DNA of 64,000 bases from a virus (lineage: Duplodnaviria > Heunggongvirae > Uroviricota > Caudoviricetes). The translations under genes and the position numbers were made by a program. Shown piece by piece: positions 8,859 through 48,100 of this stretch (positions are counted from its first letter, which is position 1; every line of letters begins with the position of its first letter). Location: IMG/VR virus record IMGVR_UViG_2721755711_000002. One strand, given 5' to 3'. The notes beneath the pieces were generated by a model. It was not told where the DNA came from and searched no databases. It worked only from the letters and a program-made list of their open reading frames with translations.

Positions 8859-10091
8859 GTGGGTATGCATGGACTAGTTTTGACAACAGCCGGGGCAGCC
8901 GAAATTGAAGCTGCATATCATGCCGGTGAGGTGGTGACCATCAGTCAGGTGATGATTGGTGACGGGGGCGGGAAAACACTGCCCTCAACGCCGGATGAGA
9001 TGGCGGCGATGGTCATGTTGTGTGGTGAGTTTGGTCGGGAGCCCTTTTCAGGCGGCGTGGTGGACGAAGGTTTTATCAGCGGGGATATTGTCATTGACTG
9101 TCAGTCATACCCGGGTAAGACCCTGCGCGAGCTGGGAATGGTGAGTCATCGTGGTACGCTGATTGCGTATGGTCGTTATCCGGATACGTATTTACCGGCA
9201 CAGACGGATTCCGTTATCAAGGAGGTGATACTGACACTGGTTCTTGCGCTTACACATACACAGAGTGTAACGCTGAATGTTGATCCGCACAGGGCGATTA
9301 TCACGCAGGAGGCCGGAGATAAACGATATCTGCGTATCAGTGAAAATCTTGCTGATGTGAAAGACAGGGATGAGGCTGTTGAAAACCTCGGATTAAAACC
9401 TACGGTGGACAAGGCAAAAAATGCCGTTCAGCGTGATGGCGACACCATGACAGGAAAGCTGACGCTGCCCCAGACCTCCGGATTTGGTGTTAACACTGAC
9501 AATGCCCTGGGCGGTAACTCAATTGCTCTCGGAGATAACGATACCGGTATAAAGCAAAACGGCGACGGCATTCTGGATGTTTATGCGAATGGTCAGCATG
9601 TATTTCGTTTTCAGAATGGCGTGGCGATGGCGTTAAAAAATATTCAGGCCGGAAATGGCAGAATGTTTACGCTATCCAGTTCTGACAGTTCCACGAAGAA
9701 CGTAGGGTTTAATTTATGGGGCAATCCATCCAGACCTGTAGTTGCAGAACTTGGTGATGATTCCGGCTGGCATTTCTACAGTCAGAGAAATACAGACGGT
9801 AGCGTCACATTCGCTGTAAACGGACAGATGACCCCATCAAACTACGCAAATTTTGATGCCCGCTATCAGACAAAAACAGGTGGCGTGCAGAATTTTCAGT
9901 ACACCAGTGAGGTGTTTTACAACCCGGGAGGGAACGAACTCAGCTGGACGTTCCGCGCACCGTCTGGTTGTACCCTGTCCGGTATTCTGGTTCAGGATAC
10001 CGGCAGAAACTCTGCGGATAATATCGGTGGTGTGTATTACAAACAGGCCCAGATTTATATAAATGGCGCATGGCGCTCAGTATCAGGTTAA
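8859..10091 (+). CDS. tail fibre protein, P2 gpH-like
   Basis: N-terminus TTAGAAE..VMIGDGGGK and C-terminal GDNDTGIKQNGDGILDVYAN..FRFQNGVA block recall P2 H. Confidence 0.8.
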   Translation: MGMHGLVLTTAGAAEIEAAYHAGEVVTISQVMIGDGGGKTLPSTPDEMAAMVMLCGEFGREPFSGGVVDEGFISGDIVIDCQSYPGKTLRELGMVSHRGTLIAYGRYPDTYLPAQTDSVIKEVILTLVLALTHTQSVTLNVDPHRAIITQEAGDKRYLRISENLADVKDRDEAVENLGLKPTVDKAKNAVQRDGDTMTGKLTLPQTSGFGVNTDNALGGNSIALGDNDTGIKQNGDGILDVYANGQHVFRFQNGVAMALKNIQAGNGRMFTLSSSDSSTKNVGFNLWGNPSRPVVAELGDDSGWHFYSQRNTDGSVTFAVNGQMTPSNYANFDARYQTKTGGVQNFQYTSEVFYNPGGNELSWTFRAPSGCTLSGILVQDTGRNSADNIGGVYYKQAQIYINGAWRSVSG

Positions 10092-43824: not shown

Positions 43825-44007
43825 TCAGTTCTGCAGACACTGCCGAACACCGTCGACAATTTCACAGACCTGAGAAGCTGTATCAAAAAGCTGGCGCGCT
43901 TTATCCAGGCTGACACATCCCACCAGGAAAAAAGGCACCAGTATCGCTACCAGCGCCCATTTCACCGCCGTTCGAGGCATTCTGTGTGTCCAGTGTTTTC
44001 GGCTCAT
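43825..44007 (-). CDS. small lipoprotein (60 aa)
   Basis: signal peptide with LVGC lipobox; three Cys in mature part. Confidence 0.5.
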   Translation of the reverse strand: MSRKHWTHRMPRTAVKWALVAILVPFFLVGCVSLDKARQLFDTASQVCEIVDGVRQCLQN

Positions 44008-44008
44008 G

Positions 44009-44122
44009 TCACCACCAACGCACAGCCCAAATCAGAACAGCGACCGCCACAAGGCGAATTGCAAAGGCCGCAGCCCTTGTCAAATCAAGGCTCGCGGGAG
44101 TTTCCACTTCAATACCTTTCAT
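44009..44122 (-). CDS. small membrane peptide (37 aa, ends RWW)
   Basis: MKGIEVETPASLDLTRAAAFAIRLVAVAVLIWAVRWW; stop 1 nt before lipoprotein ATG; GAGG RBS; below ORF-track size cutoff. Confidence 0.35.
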   Translation of the reverse strand: MKGIEVETPASLDLTRAAAFAIRLVAVAVLIWAVRWW

Positions 44123-44203
44123 AATGGACAACCTCAAAAAGAATCTTTTATACTTTCCCACGAGGATTTTCTCCGTACTCACTACTCACAATTTCCTCTT
44201 TGA

Positions 44204-44244
44204 CGTGAAAACTAAAAACCCCGGACTGTTCCAGCAGCCGGGGT
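44204..44244. terminator. bidirectional intrinsic terminator after lysis operon
   Basis: CCCCGG-13 nt-CCGGGG flanked by A tract and TTTTGTTTTTT. Confidence 0.6.
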
Positions 44245-44252
44245 TTTGTTTT

Positions 44253-44534
44253 TTATTTACTGCCTTGGGTGCGGCATCTGGCTATTTCATTCCTGGCTTT
44301 ACTGTCACCGCGACAGATACAACGCACCGTGTCTCCGGTCAGCGTGGTAATGTAAGCCTCATCCTCTTTTTCTACCGGAATACATGGAATATCCCCGCCC
44401 AGGCAATACTCAATTTTTGCTGCAAGATGAGTGTCACGCGGATAGAACTCCAGACGATACATATTCCCCAGAACATGCACTTCTTCAACCTGACGACCAT
44501 CTTTAGTTACCGTGATTTTTTTCAGTGCGTACAT
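44253..44534 (-). CDS. Cys-rich small protein downstream of endolysin
   Basis: 94 aa from MYALKK after GGAGG RBS; CLGGDIPC..CICRG..RC. Confidence 0.45.
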   Translation of the reverse strand: MYALKKITVTKDGRQVEEVHVLGNMYRLEFYPRDTHLAAKIEYCLGGDIPCIPVEKEDEAYITTLTGDTVRCICRGDSKARNEIARCRTQGSK

Positions 44535-44604
44535 ACGTACCTCCGTTCTTTCGTTTTTTGAGCAATAAAAAAGCCGCTCATGGCGGCCCTGTATGTTTTG
44601 CAAG

Positions 44605-44988
44605 CTATCGCTTCAATTGAAAATGTGGGCCGTCTTTAAGCGTCCGCCAGTCACCGCCCCATTCGATGGCAGTTCCAAGCTCTGCGGCAGCTTGCTTAAA
44701 TGCCTGTGCGATTTTCTCGTACAGAGGCCAGTCCCATGACACCTGGCTGCCAACATAAGCCACAACATCCACAGCATCACCGGTCAGGTGGCGGCTGTTC
44801 ATGGTCTGGCTCTTACCTTCTGCAACCAGCTGTTTCTGGCGATACTTACTGCGCAGACCTTCCGTAATACCGAAATCAACCTCCGTCAGCTCCAGCGCAC
44901 GGCGAACAACAGCAACCAGCTGTGGTTTGACGCCCTCCAGATTTTTTTCACTGCGACGACTGAATCTGAATTTACCCGACATGCTCAC
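44605..44988 (-). CDS. endolysin, peptidase M15 family (L-alanyl-D-glutamate peptidase type)
   Basis: HLTGDAVDV..WGGDW..DGPHFQL motifs typical of M15 endolysins. Confidence 0.75.
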   Translation of the reverse strand: MSMSGKFRFSRRSEKNLEGVKPQLVAVVRRALELTEVDFGITEGLRSKYRQKQLVAEGKSQTMNSRHLTGDAVDVVAYVGSQVSWDWPLYEKIAQAFKQAAAELGTAIEWGGDWRTLKDGPHFQLKR

Positions 44989-45260
44989 CTCCGGAATGAA
45001 AGGATTTTTGAAACGTTCCCGCGTGCACGTATCACCAGCACGCAGAACAGCAGATTAAGCCCCACCGCCAGCCAGTTCGCCGCTAACGGGCGACCGCACA
45101 GATAGCTGAGTGGTGCAAAGGCATAAAGCAGCATCAGTAGCCAGGCCAGCCATGACATCAGCGCTTTATGTCTGGAATCACGGCGACGATAAAAAAAGAG
45201 CGTCAGCACGATAACCGTGCTTAACACCACATTCAGTAATCCGGGAAGGTTACTTAACAT
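44985..45260 (-). CDS. holin-like membrane protein
   Basis: 91 aa with three hydrophobic segments, between holin and endolysin. Confidence 0.55.
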   Translation of the reverse strand: MLSNLPGLLNVVLSTVIVLTLFFYRRRDSRHKALMSWLAWLLMLLYAFAPLSYLCGRPLAANWLAVGLNLLFCVLVIRARGNVSKILSFRR

Positions 45261-45639
45261 TACCGCCTCCTCCCCGCAGACGGGAGAACAGCCCGAATAC
45301 CAGCGATGCGATATCCTGCTGGTGGATGAATGAGAGAATCTTCACCGACACCACCGATACCAGTACCGCGCAAAGCGCGTCGAGAGATGTGCTGTGGAGA
45401 TTCAGTTTTTCAACCAGGTAAGACGCCATCACATCCGCCCCCAGCACGCCAACAATGAACGACACCAGAAAATGCGCTGCCACACGCCAGACAGAAATCT
45501 TCTGTGGTATCGTGGCCACAAACAGCGCCCCTGCGAATGCACCAAACACAATCCCGAAATCCGTTCCGGTAAACAGCCCGAATACCGTCGCCCCACCGAG
45601 CGCCGCAGCCGTGCCGGAACCGGATAAGGGTTCAGACAT
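45250..45639 (-). CDS. holin-like membrane protein
   Basis: about 130 aa from MSEPLSG after AGGAGA RBS; Gly/Ala-rich TM segments. Confidence 0.55.
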   Translation of the reverse strand: MSEPLSGSGTAAALGGATVFGLFTGTDFGIVFGAFAGALFVATIPQKISVWRVAAHFLVSFIVGVLGADVMASYLVEKLNLHSTSLDALCAVLVSVVSVKILSFIHQQDIASLVFGLFSRLRGGGGNVK

Positions 45640-45650
45640 ACTTTTTCTCC

Positions 45651-45680
45651 TGTAAATAAAAAAGGGCCGCTGTCGGCCCG
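45651..45680 (-). terminator. intrinsic terminator abutting holin RBS (tR'-like)
   Basis: minus strand GGGCCG-ACAG-CGGCCC followed by TTTTTTATTT. Confidence 0.6.
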
Positions 45681-45732
45681 TAAAAAAACCCCCCGTCAAA
45701 GGCACCCACAGATGCCTTTTGTGTGGTGCTAT

Positions 45733-45939
45733 TTATTGCTTTAGTGTCATTTGCGCTTCAATAAAGCGACGGCGGTTCTCCGCAATAACAAACGCCATTG
45801 CCAGCCCTTTGACGGCTGCATCATGACCATACCGGGTCTGAGCAGCAGCAAACCTTCGTTCTATCGCTGCTACAGAATCAATGGCAGAATCTGCTATGCA
45901 ATTTTCAAATTCAGTTATCACTTCTGTCGAAGAGGTCAT
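45733..45939 (-). CDS. small hypothetical protein (68 aa), uncertain
   Basis: helical-looking ORF in late-operon orientation; its ATG is back to back with the ATG at 45940. Confidence 0.3.
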   Translation of the reverse strand: MTSSTEVITEFENCIADSAIDSVAAIERRFAAAQTRYGHDAAVKGLAMAFVIAENRRRFIEAQMTLKQ

Positions 45940-46620
45940 ATGTACTCCCTGAAAATTAGATGCCCGTACTGCCTTCATCAGGTTCATATTTCTCTGAATG
46001 AGGTCACCCAGTACCACAGCAGGCGCCCGGCTACAGAAAACAAGCTTTACGTGCAACAGCCGCGCACCTCTGAAATAACATCAGCAAAAGCATACTCAAC
46101 AGACTTTTGCACAGAATGTAACAACCCATTAATGATCGCATTCGAATGTTCAGTCAGTGAACTGGTGGACATGAAAAAAGCCATCAACAACAAAGCCTGG
46201 GTGCTGAATGCTCCACTTGAGGGAAGCATCAAAATCTATCCTGAACTCAGGCTGCCCGATGACTCCCCCCACTATCCCGAAAAAATTCGCGCAGTCTTCA
46301 CCGAGTTGCAAGAGGATGTTCGGTCCGGCAGAACCGCCCCGCGTATCATTGTTGGCTGCCGTAGCGTCCTCGAGGTTGCCCTCCGTGCCCTGGGGTACGA
46401 AAAAGGCAATCTGCTGTCACGCATTGAACTGGCACGGCAGGACGGCATACTGACGGAATCAATGAGAAACTGGGCTCACCGAATCCGTATGGAAGGCAAT
46501 GAGGCTGTGCACGAGCTCGAGGCCAGTGGTGAACAGGCAAAAGAGTTTGTGGCGTTTCTCCGCCTGTTCCTTGAAGTGGCATTTGTGCTACCGGAACGCA
46601 TTAAGGAACAGCAGCAATAA
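45940..46620 (+). CDS. Cys-pair / HEPN-like (DUF4145-type) protein, candidate defence effector
   Basis: C-terminal ..MRNWAHRIRMEGNEAVHELE.. fits R-x-x-x-G-N-x-A-V-H signature recalled for DUF4145; CPYC and CTEC pairs; start could be 46132 or 46171. Confidence 0.45.
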   Translation: MYSLKIRCPYCLHQVHISLNEVTQYHSRRPATENKLYVQQPRTSEITSAKAYSTDFCTECNNPLMIAFECSVSELVDMKKAINNKAWVLNAPLEGSIKIYPELRLPDDSPHYPEKIRAVFTELQEDVRSGRTAPRIIVGCRSVLEVALRALGYEKGNLLSRIELARQDGILTESMRNWAHRIRMEGNEAVHELEASGEQAKEFVAFLRLFLEVAFVLPERIKEQQQ

Positions 46621-46627
46621 AAATGCA

Positions 46628-46646
46628 GCGGGCTTTCAATGCCCGC
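46628..46646. terminator. bidirectional terminator between convergent genes
   Basis: GCGGGC-TTTCAAT-GCCCGC between stop at 46620 and minus-strand ORF end. Confidence 0.5.
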
Positions 46647-46654
46647 TCAAATAA

Positions 46655-46813
46655 TCAGCTGTTGTTTTTGTTCCGGAATAAAGGCCGGAGCACGACCAGC
46701 GCCATCGCCACCAGTACACCATCAGCCAGTACCGACATCAGCCGTCCGGTGAAATCCACCGCCACTACCAGAAACAGCAGGACGGCAGCCAGCGCAAGGC
46801 GTGCACTTTTCAC
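46655..46813 (-). CDS. small membrane peptide (52 aa, GTG start overlapping TerB stop)
   Basis: VKSARLALAAVLLFLVVAVDFTGRLMSVLADGVLVAMALVVLRPLF; hydrophobic; read by hand. Confidence 0.3.
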   Translation of the reverse strand: MKSARLALAAVLLFLVVAVDFTGRLMSVLADGVLVAMALVVLRPLFRNKNNS

Positions 46814-47235
46814 AGGTACTGCTCCAGCGGTAACTGCAGCGCCTGAGCAATTTTCTTGAGCTGTGCTTCTTCATCCGGACCAATGCCATCCTGGTCTGCG
46901 ATATCCAGACACAGGCACAGCACATTAACGGCATCATCAGTACCGGCGACATCAGCCAGTTGACGGAGGGCTTCAGCATTGGCAGAACGCGGCGATGCTT
47001 CATAACGGGCGCGGATATTCGCGCTCATCTGGGCAATCTCACCGGAGAACGGCGCAAAGGCAGGAAGTGCTGCAATGGTTTTCTCCAGTACCGCAATTTC
47101 TTTCGCGTCACAGGTGTCGTCAGCGTATGCAATGGAATACGCGCCCCAGACGGTCGCCTCCACCGCGTCGCGGTTCTCCATTTTCTTCACTTCAGTAATA
47201 GCCTTACGGGTTTTCTTTTTGAAAATACCAAACAT
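46810..47235 (-). CDS. TerB-domain protein
   Basis: MFGIFKKK start after AGGA RBS; C-terminal VLCLCLDIADQDGIGPDEEAQLKKIAQAL typical of TerB-like fold. Confidence 0.55.
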   Translation of the reverse strand: MFGIFKKKTRKAITEVKKMENRDAVEATVWGAYSIAYADDTCDAKEIAVLEKTIAALPAFAPFSGEIAQMSANIRARYEASPRSANAEALRQLADVAGTDDAVNVLCLCLDIADQDGIGPDEEAQLKKIAQALQLPLEQYL

Positions 47236-47432
47236 CGTGACTTTTCCTTTTAGTGGGTGAGCCTCGCCCCGGGATGAGCAGCCCACAGAGAAAGTCACAC
47301 TGACCATCCCGTAAGCTCCCCCCTGAAAGGCTCTGTGGTTTTTTGATGTGCGCCGGGCGTGGCGCAGATATGAAAAAGGCCACGCACGTGCGCAGCCTGA
47401 TAATTTTCTGAATCAGCGGAGTGTCAGCTGGT

Positions 47433-47924
47433 TTACCCTTTCACTTCTGAAAGGGATTTTTTGCCAAACGTCACTTCATTCATTGACATAAGTATGCTGT
47501 CTTTAATGTATTCGCACACTTCATTAATTTTTGCGTTGGTATCCACATGCGAAAATGTCCTGGCCTGATAACCATCAACCGAAATCGTCATGTTGTCGCC
47601 ATCAAGTAACAGAATACTCACTGTAATATTCACACTTACAGACTGGCGGGGATCATCATCAACAACCGTATATAAATTAAAAGTAACCCCATCCTGAAAA
47701 TCTACCTGCAAATCCTCCGGTTTCTCACAACAACTATCATGAGAAAGATAAACATAGGGATGGGAGTTACCGTCAATATCCAGCCATCGTGGTTTCGGCA
47801 ATGCCAGTGAGTCTTCATAGGTCTTGACCAGCCTTTTTGCCATATCCCGCAGTCGCTGGATGTACTCCTGTCTGGCCTCCTGAATTTCAGCCTGCTTTGC
47901 CCGAATGTCTGCATATGTGATCAC
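47433..47924 (-). CDS. hypothetical protein (164 aa), AT-rich cargo gene
   Basis: GTG start at 47924 with GGAGA RBS; N-terminal helix then beta-rich region; no family recognised. Confidence 0.45.
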   Translation of the reverse strand: MITYADIRAKQAEIQEARQEYIQRLRDMAKRLVKTYEDSLALPKPRWLDIDGNSHPYVYLSHDSCCEKPEDLQVDFQDGVTFNLYTVVDDDPRQSVSVNITVSILLLDGDNMTISVDGYQARTFSHVDTNAKINEVCEYIKDSILMSMNEVTFGKKSLSEVKG

Positions 47925-48020
47925 AGTCTCAATTCTCCTGTATACAGAAAAATAAAACATAATAATAGCCAACCGGGAAAAGATGAAAAATGCCATAACA
48001 GAACAGGCATTGCGCACGGA

Positions 48021-48047
48021 TAAAAAAATGCCCGTCATGAGACGGGC
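48021..48047 (-). terminator. intrinsic terminator downstream of tRNA gene
   Basis: minus strand GCCCGTC-TCAT-GACGGGC followed by TTTTTTTA. Confidence 0.55.
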
Positions 48048-48100
48048 TAAAACATTCATCATGCAAGAGTTAAGCAGGATTACTTGTATCGAATTATCGG

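Follow-up and report, generated by a model that had tools for sequence, protein, structure and literature searches.

A terminator-bounded cassette from an uncharacterized phage protein family at the late-operon head of a lambdoid prophage: a candidate conflict factor

A short gene lies between a tRNA gene and a TerB gene in the late region of a lambdoid prophage, and the question raised by this locus is what such a gene encodes and why a phage should carry it. The original prediction, made from the sequence alone, described it as an AT-rich orphan and placed it in the interval between the antiterminator gene Q and the lysis genes. In the window (the whole stretch of 64,000 nucleotides analyzed here), the flagged gene is found at the late-operon head of the prophage on the minus strand. 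The tRNA-Gly, TerB, Q, holin, and endolysin genes were all located around it (Table 1), confirming the predicted position.

Table 1. Coordinates of the flagged gene, its signals, and its neighbors in the window
Feature	Coordinates	Strand	Remarks
RusA and Q antiterminator (PF06323)	Q, 50226-50921	minus	Pfam assignment
Predicted PR' (TTGCAA-17-TATATT)	50242-50214	minus	overlaps the end of Q
Predicted tR', strong hairpin with T-run	50163-50140	minus	about 50 nt downstream of PR'
Small winged-helix ORF and N6/N4 DNA methylase	48619-49665	minus	between tR' and tRNA-Gly
tRNA-Gly(TCC)	48328-48400	minus	upstream context, outside the cassette
Upstream terminator-like hairpin GCCCGTCTCATGACGGGC with T-run	48030-48047	minus	ends the tRNA-Gly/spacer unit
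Predicted sigma-70 promoter TTTTCA-16-TATTAT	47962-47989	minus	just before the ribosome-binding site; 9 of 12 consensus matches
Shine-Dalgarno AGGAG	47939-47935	minus	10 nt before GTG
Flagged CDS	47433-47924	minus	164 codons with stop, 163 aa; PHROG 5091
Downstream Rho-independent terminator AGGCTGCGCACGTGCGTGGCCT with TTTTT	47377-47398	minus	35 nt past the stop; recombination boundary with TerB
TerB (PF05099)	46810-47235	minus	neighbor module, evolves independently
DUF3927	46655-46813	minus	4-bp overlap with TerB; module spans 46655-47235
DUF4145 gene, 226 aa (PF13643, E=3.6e-11; PHROG 1305)	45940-46620	plus	between DUF3927 and the holins
Small ORF	45733-45939	minus	beside the DUF4145 gene
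Two holins and M15 endolysin	44605-45705		lysis end of the interval
Cargo block missing in TK3046	45733-48010		2.28 kb: cassette, TerB-DUF3927, DUF4145 gene, small ORF

The flagged gene was expected to begin with GTG behind a good ribosome-binding site, and both features were supported. The GTG codon occupies 47924-47922 on the minus strand, a Shine-Dalgarno sequence precedes it by 10 nt, and homologues of 20 to 30% identity from P2-like phages, phage CharmingMan, Klebsiella, Salmonella, and Kosakonia all start at the aligned M-(I/V)-(T/N)-(Y/F). The predicted length of 164 aa agrees with the number of codons but includes the stop, so the product has 163 aa. In its maximal in-frame form, the ORF reaches upstream to a TTG at 48266, and close relatives are annotated in RefSeq with 201 or 194 aa (L001, 6134-6739; L015 to L018, 6001-6585), the N-terminal extension of these relatives resembling a membrane helix. 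The longer N terminus was rejected because alleles differ in its start and because it runs across both the promoter-like element and the terminator that lies upstream; the RefSeq starts for this family are probably over-extended.

The low GC content noted in the original prediction was also confirmed, at 43.1% for the ORF compared with 50.0% for the window and 52 to 56% for the flanking TerB and methylase genes. This value corresponds to the 7.6th percentile among 492-bp windows, and the gene is moderately AT-rich, not extreme. Against alleles of 69 to 70% identity, dN/dS was 0.13 to 0.19, and the third codon position held 72 to 78 of the 131 to 137 differences. The gene is under purifying, not diversifying, selection, and the identical 163-aa product was found on 274 contigs.

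The term orphan did not survive database searches. The flagged protein matched the PHROG 5091 profile (E=3.6e-42, 144.9 bits), with residues 1-154 aligned to positions 2-161 of 164, and it has the same length and domain content as this family. Word-indexed searches yielded 67 homologue clusters at 90% identity, and an exhaustive profile search against 1.84 billion representatives (50% identity) yielded 167 at E<=1e-3 and 97 at E<=1e-10. The members from the profile search are nearly all single-domain stand-alone proteins of 150 to 185 aa, and full-length homologues reach down to about 20% identity. Three long repetitive profile matches (P0075, P0197, and P0186) were dropped as compositional or assembly artifacts. 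Cluster members come from Escherichia, Salmonella, Citrobacter, Enterobacter, Klebsiella, Superficieibacter, and Trabulsiella, with further homologues in Yersinia, Providencia, and Kosakonia, and every identified host belongs to the Enterobacterales. Homologues were found only in temperate phages and prophages, and a search of plasmids found none. The family is a rare one: of 5426 complete E. coli genomes, 26 have a clade-A allele and one of these has the exact window allele, and 5 of 50,697 phage records include a homologue.

The other half of that description, that no known family could be named, was upheld. Scans of the flagged protein against Pfam and NCBIfam, and of 90 family members against Pfam, gave no significant match, only scattered ones at E>0.003. 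The best match in PADLOC-DB v2 was a cyclase model below significance (E=0.024, 11.5 bits), and profile searches of PDB sequences (A2 and A3 profiles) returned nothing under E=0.05. Family members are annotated as hypothetical throughout, and a literature search on the family, the TerB/DUF3927 context, and morons between Q and the holins found nothing on the flagged protein. PHROG 5091 itself is without an assigned function, a Pfam or NCBIfam model, a solved structure, or literature. Remote-homology searches thus led to an uncharacterized family and matched no housekeeping phage function.

Structure prediction gave a confident alpha/beta model without a clear solved relative. AlphaFold2, run on a 42-sequence alignment, predicted a helix (residues 4-39), seven antiparallel strands (46-124), a second helix (130-149), and a disordered tail (152-163), with a pLDDT of 87.5 and a pTM of 0.80. 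Fold searches with this model found no convincing structural relative; the weak neighbors, namely F-actin capping protein subunits, the FP domain of Fbxo7/PI31, and the Med17 C-terminal domain, are protein-binding or dimerization scaffolds. The protein has a mass of 18.6 kDa and a pI of 4.75 (family median, 5.15), and the net charge is negative in all members. No membrane segment is expected (maximum Kyte-Doolittle value of 1.16 in a 19-residue window), and the soluble, acidic product, which has no Pfam domain, shows no features of a lysis protein. The best-conserved positions of the family (Y36, S39, L40, W47, Y57, T86, and K141) are mostly aromatic or aliphatic, and the enterobacterial clades share a conserved T-V-x-D-D-x-P turn. 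No catalytic signature was found in the protein, and the pattern of conservation suggests structural positions or an interface more than an active site. The disordered tail of most relatives also bears a conserved C-terminal motif, L-W-(D) or G-W. The window allele is without this W and has a stop codon where relatives have it (compare 47433-47441 of the window with L015, 6549-6585).

We then compared the locus with related prophages and phages. The flagged ORF is 62 to 83% identical to the nearest allele group (L015), measured across the ORF, and the identity is 38% right after the stop and 88 to 98% from the terminator into TerB; on the methylase side it is 94%. Because the identity breaks at the edges of the ORF, the gene is a separate module within a conserved backbone. 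The prophage of E. coli TK3046 (L083) has an empty cargo slot with flanks of 93 to 95% identity, in which the tRNA-Gly gene and its terminator run directly into the holin leader. The upstream hairpin is retained in this prophage, and the cassette starts at the breakpoint 48010/48011 relative to it. In P88-like phages (Xuanwuvirus, P2 family), about 640 bp carrying a homologue are cleanly inserted, with a terminator hairpin on one side and the 3' end of the portal gene on the other. This homologue converges on the portal gene, and its cassette, which closes with a bidirectional terminator, is absent from P88, P88_4B11, 520873, and others. Its orientation toward the portal operon, together with the terminator in front of it, implies a promoter inside the P88-like cassette. 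With homologues on lambdoid, P88/P2-like, and E217-like backbones, the gene and its bounding terminators move together between phages of at least three backbones. The proposed horizontal exchange of the gene as cargo is therefore supported by its presence or absence in related phages, the identity break at the cassette edge, and the several backbones.

The signals at the cassette ends were similar across lambdoid loci. A Rho-independent terminator follows the stop within 20 to 50 nt in 14 of 14 loci, and in most loci the start is preceded by a short leader with a -10-like element, which itself comes after a terminator (tR' or another one). In the window, the predicted sigma-70 promoter TTTTCA-16-TATTAT is shared with the 69%-identical allele group, in which the -10 element is conserved; it is a consensus prediction of a kind no commoner in this region than in shuffled sequence. 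Clade B has an invariant GTGGCATACTGT 41 to 42 nt before the ATG in 13 of 13 loci, and it is kept whether the upstream neighbor is tR', another spacer, or an HNH gene. A single chance match with one mismatch was found in 0.93 Mb, and the motif fits a predicted extended -10 promoter. A reading of the conserved upstream motif as a LexA box was dropped for want of the CTGT-N8-ACAG spacing. Similar sequences border each of the cargo modules, namely a hairpin followed by TTTTTCAT(A/C/G)T (for example, GTGGCCTTTTTCATATC, ATGGCATTTTTCATCTT, and GCGGACCTTTTTCACATC), as read at 47377-47398 and 47985-48000 of the window and in L015 and L083. These borders could be recombination linkers for module exchange.

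Several features of the flanks were noted in addition. The spacer between tRNA-Gly and the terminator (48015-48327, minus strand) is predicted to fold with unusual stability (minimum free energy of -102.8 kcal/mol, z = -4.6), contains an inverted repeat with 20-nt arms at 48098-48117 and 48163-48182, and is conserved at 95% in a cassette-free prophage. It has no Rfam match above threshold, and it may be a structured RNA cotranscribed with tRNA-Gly. An Rfam scan of 44000-52000 gave only the tRNA above threshold; a subthreshold match to isrK, an sRNA of Salmonella Gifsy-1, covers 50138-50242 on the minus strand (23.8 bits against a gathering score of 50). Downstream, a start of TerB at M25 (47235) gives a protein of 141 aa, in agreement with PHROG and homologue annotations, and the maximal TerB ORF of 165 aa is probably over-long. 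The TerB stop and the DUF3927 start share the 4 bp at 46810-46813, which suggests translational coupling. The DUF4145 protein showed a weak PADLOC match to PD-T7-4 (E=1.1e-3); its gene is found in L017 and L019 and is missing from the otherwise similar L015, L016, and L018. It is itself a candidate for a separate defense moron.

The position of the homologues was examined across phages. In lambdoid phages, the homologue is usually the first ORF behind PR'-tR' and is followed by varied lysis cassettes. In the window, the flagged gene lies about 2.2 kb downstream of the predicted PR'/tR' next to Q. Three unrelated Q families are found upstream: PF06323 in the window, PF03589 in Klebsiella, Salmonella, Kosakonia, and E. 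coli, and PF06530 in Yersinia. Exceptions to this position are L023, in which the homologue follows the lysis cassette, and the E217-like myovirus of Providencia (L078), in which it lies between a P22-Ant-like gene and tail genes. In a Yersinia enterocolitica prophage (L079), a 78-aa Acb2/Tad1-hairpin protein (PF24729) is encoded at 9395-9631, just after the lysis genes and in the same late region as the family member.

In about 45 P2-family loci, the homologue lies in the cos-proximal gpA-gpQ region and in every case directly beside the portal gene, and the cargo toward gpA varies (KAP NTPase, HicB, Phd/Fic, and others). A search of the P2-like loci for the cos sequences of P2 and 186 found none. 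The P88-like phages have a conserved GC-rich block of about 450 bp upstream of the insertion, ended by a terminator (L011, 6500-6960; L081; L082), and the linear P88_4B11 record begins within this block. Should the virion DNA end where this record begins, the P88-like cassette would be about 480 bp from its left end.

These positions invite comparison with known cargo. The interval between Q, a tRNA, and the holins is where Stx phages carry stx, and both stx and the moron definition of Hendrix and Juhala, used here for comparison, are established knowledge. The flagged cassette shares with classical lambdoid morons and the stx slot the same interval of Q, PR'/tR', tRNA, cargo, and holin, and like lambdoid morons it differs in composition from its flanks, is bounded by terminators, and is present or absent between close relatives. 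Unlike classical morons, its product has no signal peptide or membrane segment and resembles no toxin, no esterase, and none of the moron products of the outer membrane; for this cassette, prophage expression, a feature of morons, is a prediction. In P2-family phages, the homologue, like old, tin, and the gpA-gpQ cargo, is a single gene which would be autonomously transcribed (the promoter is predicted), and like the gpA-gpQ cargo its presence varies between related phages. In contrast to the variable gpA-gpQ cargo, it is always at the portal gene and, judging from the start of P88_4B11, may be on the portal side of cos. The flagged protein resembles Old and Tin in neither sequence nor fold, and compared with these proteins and the gpA-gpQ cargo it is much smaller and without an ATPase or nuclease domain. 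The flagged cassette is an ordinary, well-delimited moron of an uncharacterized phage family.

As to the function of the product, we suggest that the flagged gene encodes a conflict-related binding protein, whose most probable role would be that of an exclusion or defense factor protecting the lysogen; we give this reading a probability of about 0.4. The gene would be a stand-alone moron, in which promoter, ORF, and terminator are carried as one unit. Because it sits in the late operon, Q-modified RNA polymerase would read through it in lytic growth. Its own weak predicted sigma-70 promoter would also drive expression from the repressed prophage, and the strong terminator behind the gene would keep that transcription off the holin genes. 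The product would bind another protein stoichiometrically, without catalysis, and would confer an advantage on the lysogen or the phage in phage-phage or phage-defense conflict. The gene would then be part of neither the TerB module nor the lysis machinery.

The evidence for a conflict factor comes from several sides. The gene is constrained and its full-length family is broad, and no context provides it with a fixed partner gene. It behaves as a cassette, as seen from the terminators, the GTGGCATACTGT that travels with the gene, the identity break, the empty slot, and the P88-like insertion. The product is acidic and soluble with conserved aromatic or aliphatic residues, and its weak fold neighbors are binding scaffolds. 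As to position, lambdoid homologues come first after PR'-tR' downstream of three different Q families, and the gpA-gpQ region occupied by the P2-family homologues is an antiviral hotspot (Rousset et al. 2022, PMC9122126). However, no homologue has an assigned function, PADLOC finds no defense family, and a protein of about 160 aa without an effector domain is atypical among single-gene defense systems. Selection on the gene is purifying, not diversifying, the family is rare, and the window allele is without the C-terminal W motif of its relatives; these points also count against a conflict factor. Expression in the lysogen is weakened by a promoter with only 9 of 12 consensus matches and no excess over shuffled sequence, and by the location of the gene directly behind tR' in most lambdoid loci, which purely late expression fits at least equally well.

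A counter-defense role would use such late expression; we regard it as unlikely, though it is the likeliest of the alternatives. The product would be a small acidic inhibitor, abundant from the Q-antiterminated late transcript and perhaps also made constitutively, and it would act on host immunity, for example, immunity triggered by portal, terminase, or capsid, or serve as a decoy. Where the gene comes directly behind tR', as in many lambdoid phages, strong late expression is expected, and in P88-like phages the homologue adjoins the portal and terminase genes. The small, soluble, non-enzymatic protein and the deeply divergent alleles within conserved flanks also agree with an inhibitor, as does the Acb2/Tad1-hairpin gene in the late region of the Yersinia relative. 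The distribution of the family bears on both sides: occurrence only in phages and prophages, never on plasmids, favors counter-defense, whereas the restriction to temperate phages and prophages speaks against it. Anti-defense genes so far known are mostly expressed early, and no structural match to solved anti-defense proteins was obtained. Very few anti-defense genes were recovered from P2 in a 2026 survey covering P2 and P4 elements. The evidence separates the conflict or exclusion reading from the counter-defense reading only weakly. A proposal which spans both is offered tentatively, with the odds somewhat against it: the flagged gene may encode a new single-protein conflict factor, acting in exclusion or defense or in late counter-defense, with a fold not found among solved structures and shuttling as a ready-to-express cassette between lambdoid, P2/P88-like, and other temperate phages of the Enterobacterales. 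The same joint estimate covers its preference for the slot behind tR' in lambdoid phages and for the cos-proximal slot in P88-like phages.

A non-essential accessory function confined to the lytic cycle, such as lysis timing, late transcription, or virion assembly (e.g., a chaperone-like activity), is distinctly improbable. It is suggested by the location directly upstream of the holin/lysis cassette in most lambdoid loci and beside portal and terminase in P88-like phages. The genes alongside, however, encode unrelated holins, endolysins, Qs, heads, and tails and offer no conserved client, and the homologue is missing from close, otherwise identical relatives. The product has no membrane segment, and homologues at other sites (L023 and the Providencia L078) do not fit such a function either.

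A link to TerB had been implied when the gene was named by its TerB neighbor, and the flagged gene could in principle be the first of a three-gene stress, tellurite, or phage-inhibition module with TerB and DUF3927. The order homologue-TerB-DUF3927 is indeed conserved in 10 of 10 clade-A loci and in phage CharmingMan, with its homologue of only 30% identity. However, TerB adjoins the homologue only in E. coli clade A and CharmingMan, and was absent beside the homologue in Klebsiella, Salmonella, Kosakonia, Yersinia, Providencia, and all P2-like loci. The flagged ORF and TerB lie about 200 bp apart with a terminator between them, and identity is 62 to 83% on the ORF side and 88 to 98% on the TerB side of the break. 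TerB is nearly identical whichever allele precedes it, with 4 differences in the first 40 residues between CharmingMan and the window. The adjacency, as judged from these comparisons, is mosaic, not functional; a shared module is very unlikely, and the implied link was not sustained. A chance ORF or decaying pseudogene in an AT-rich spacer, to which the stop one codon before the conserved W of relatives and the inconsistent RefSeq start calls might point, is effectively refuted by conservation; against it stand the low dN/dS with 78 of 137 differences at the third codon position, the full-length homologues down to about 20% identity, the confident AlphaFold model, and the identical product on many contigs. 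The leftover probability belongs to functions outside these explanations.

If the conflict-factor reading is true, the prophage-borne conflict genes would gain a small one-gene system (about 160 aa) whose fold is unassigned, and one and the same cassette would serve in both of the best-known cargo slots found in temperate phages of enterobacteria. The bounds of the cassette (about 48010 to 47370) are precise enough for direct cloning, and the flagged gene is a cheap candidate for a defense or anti-defense screen.
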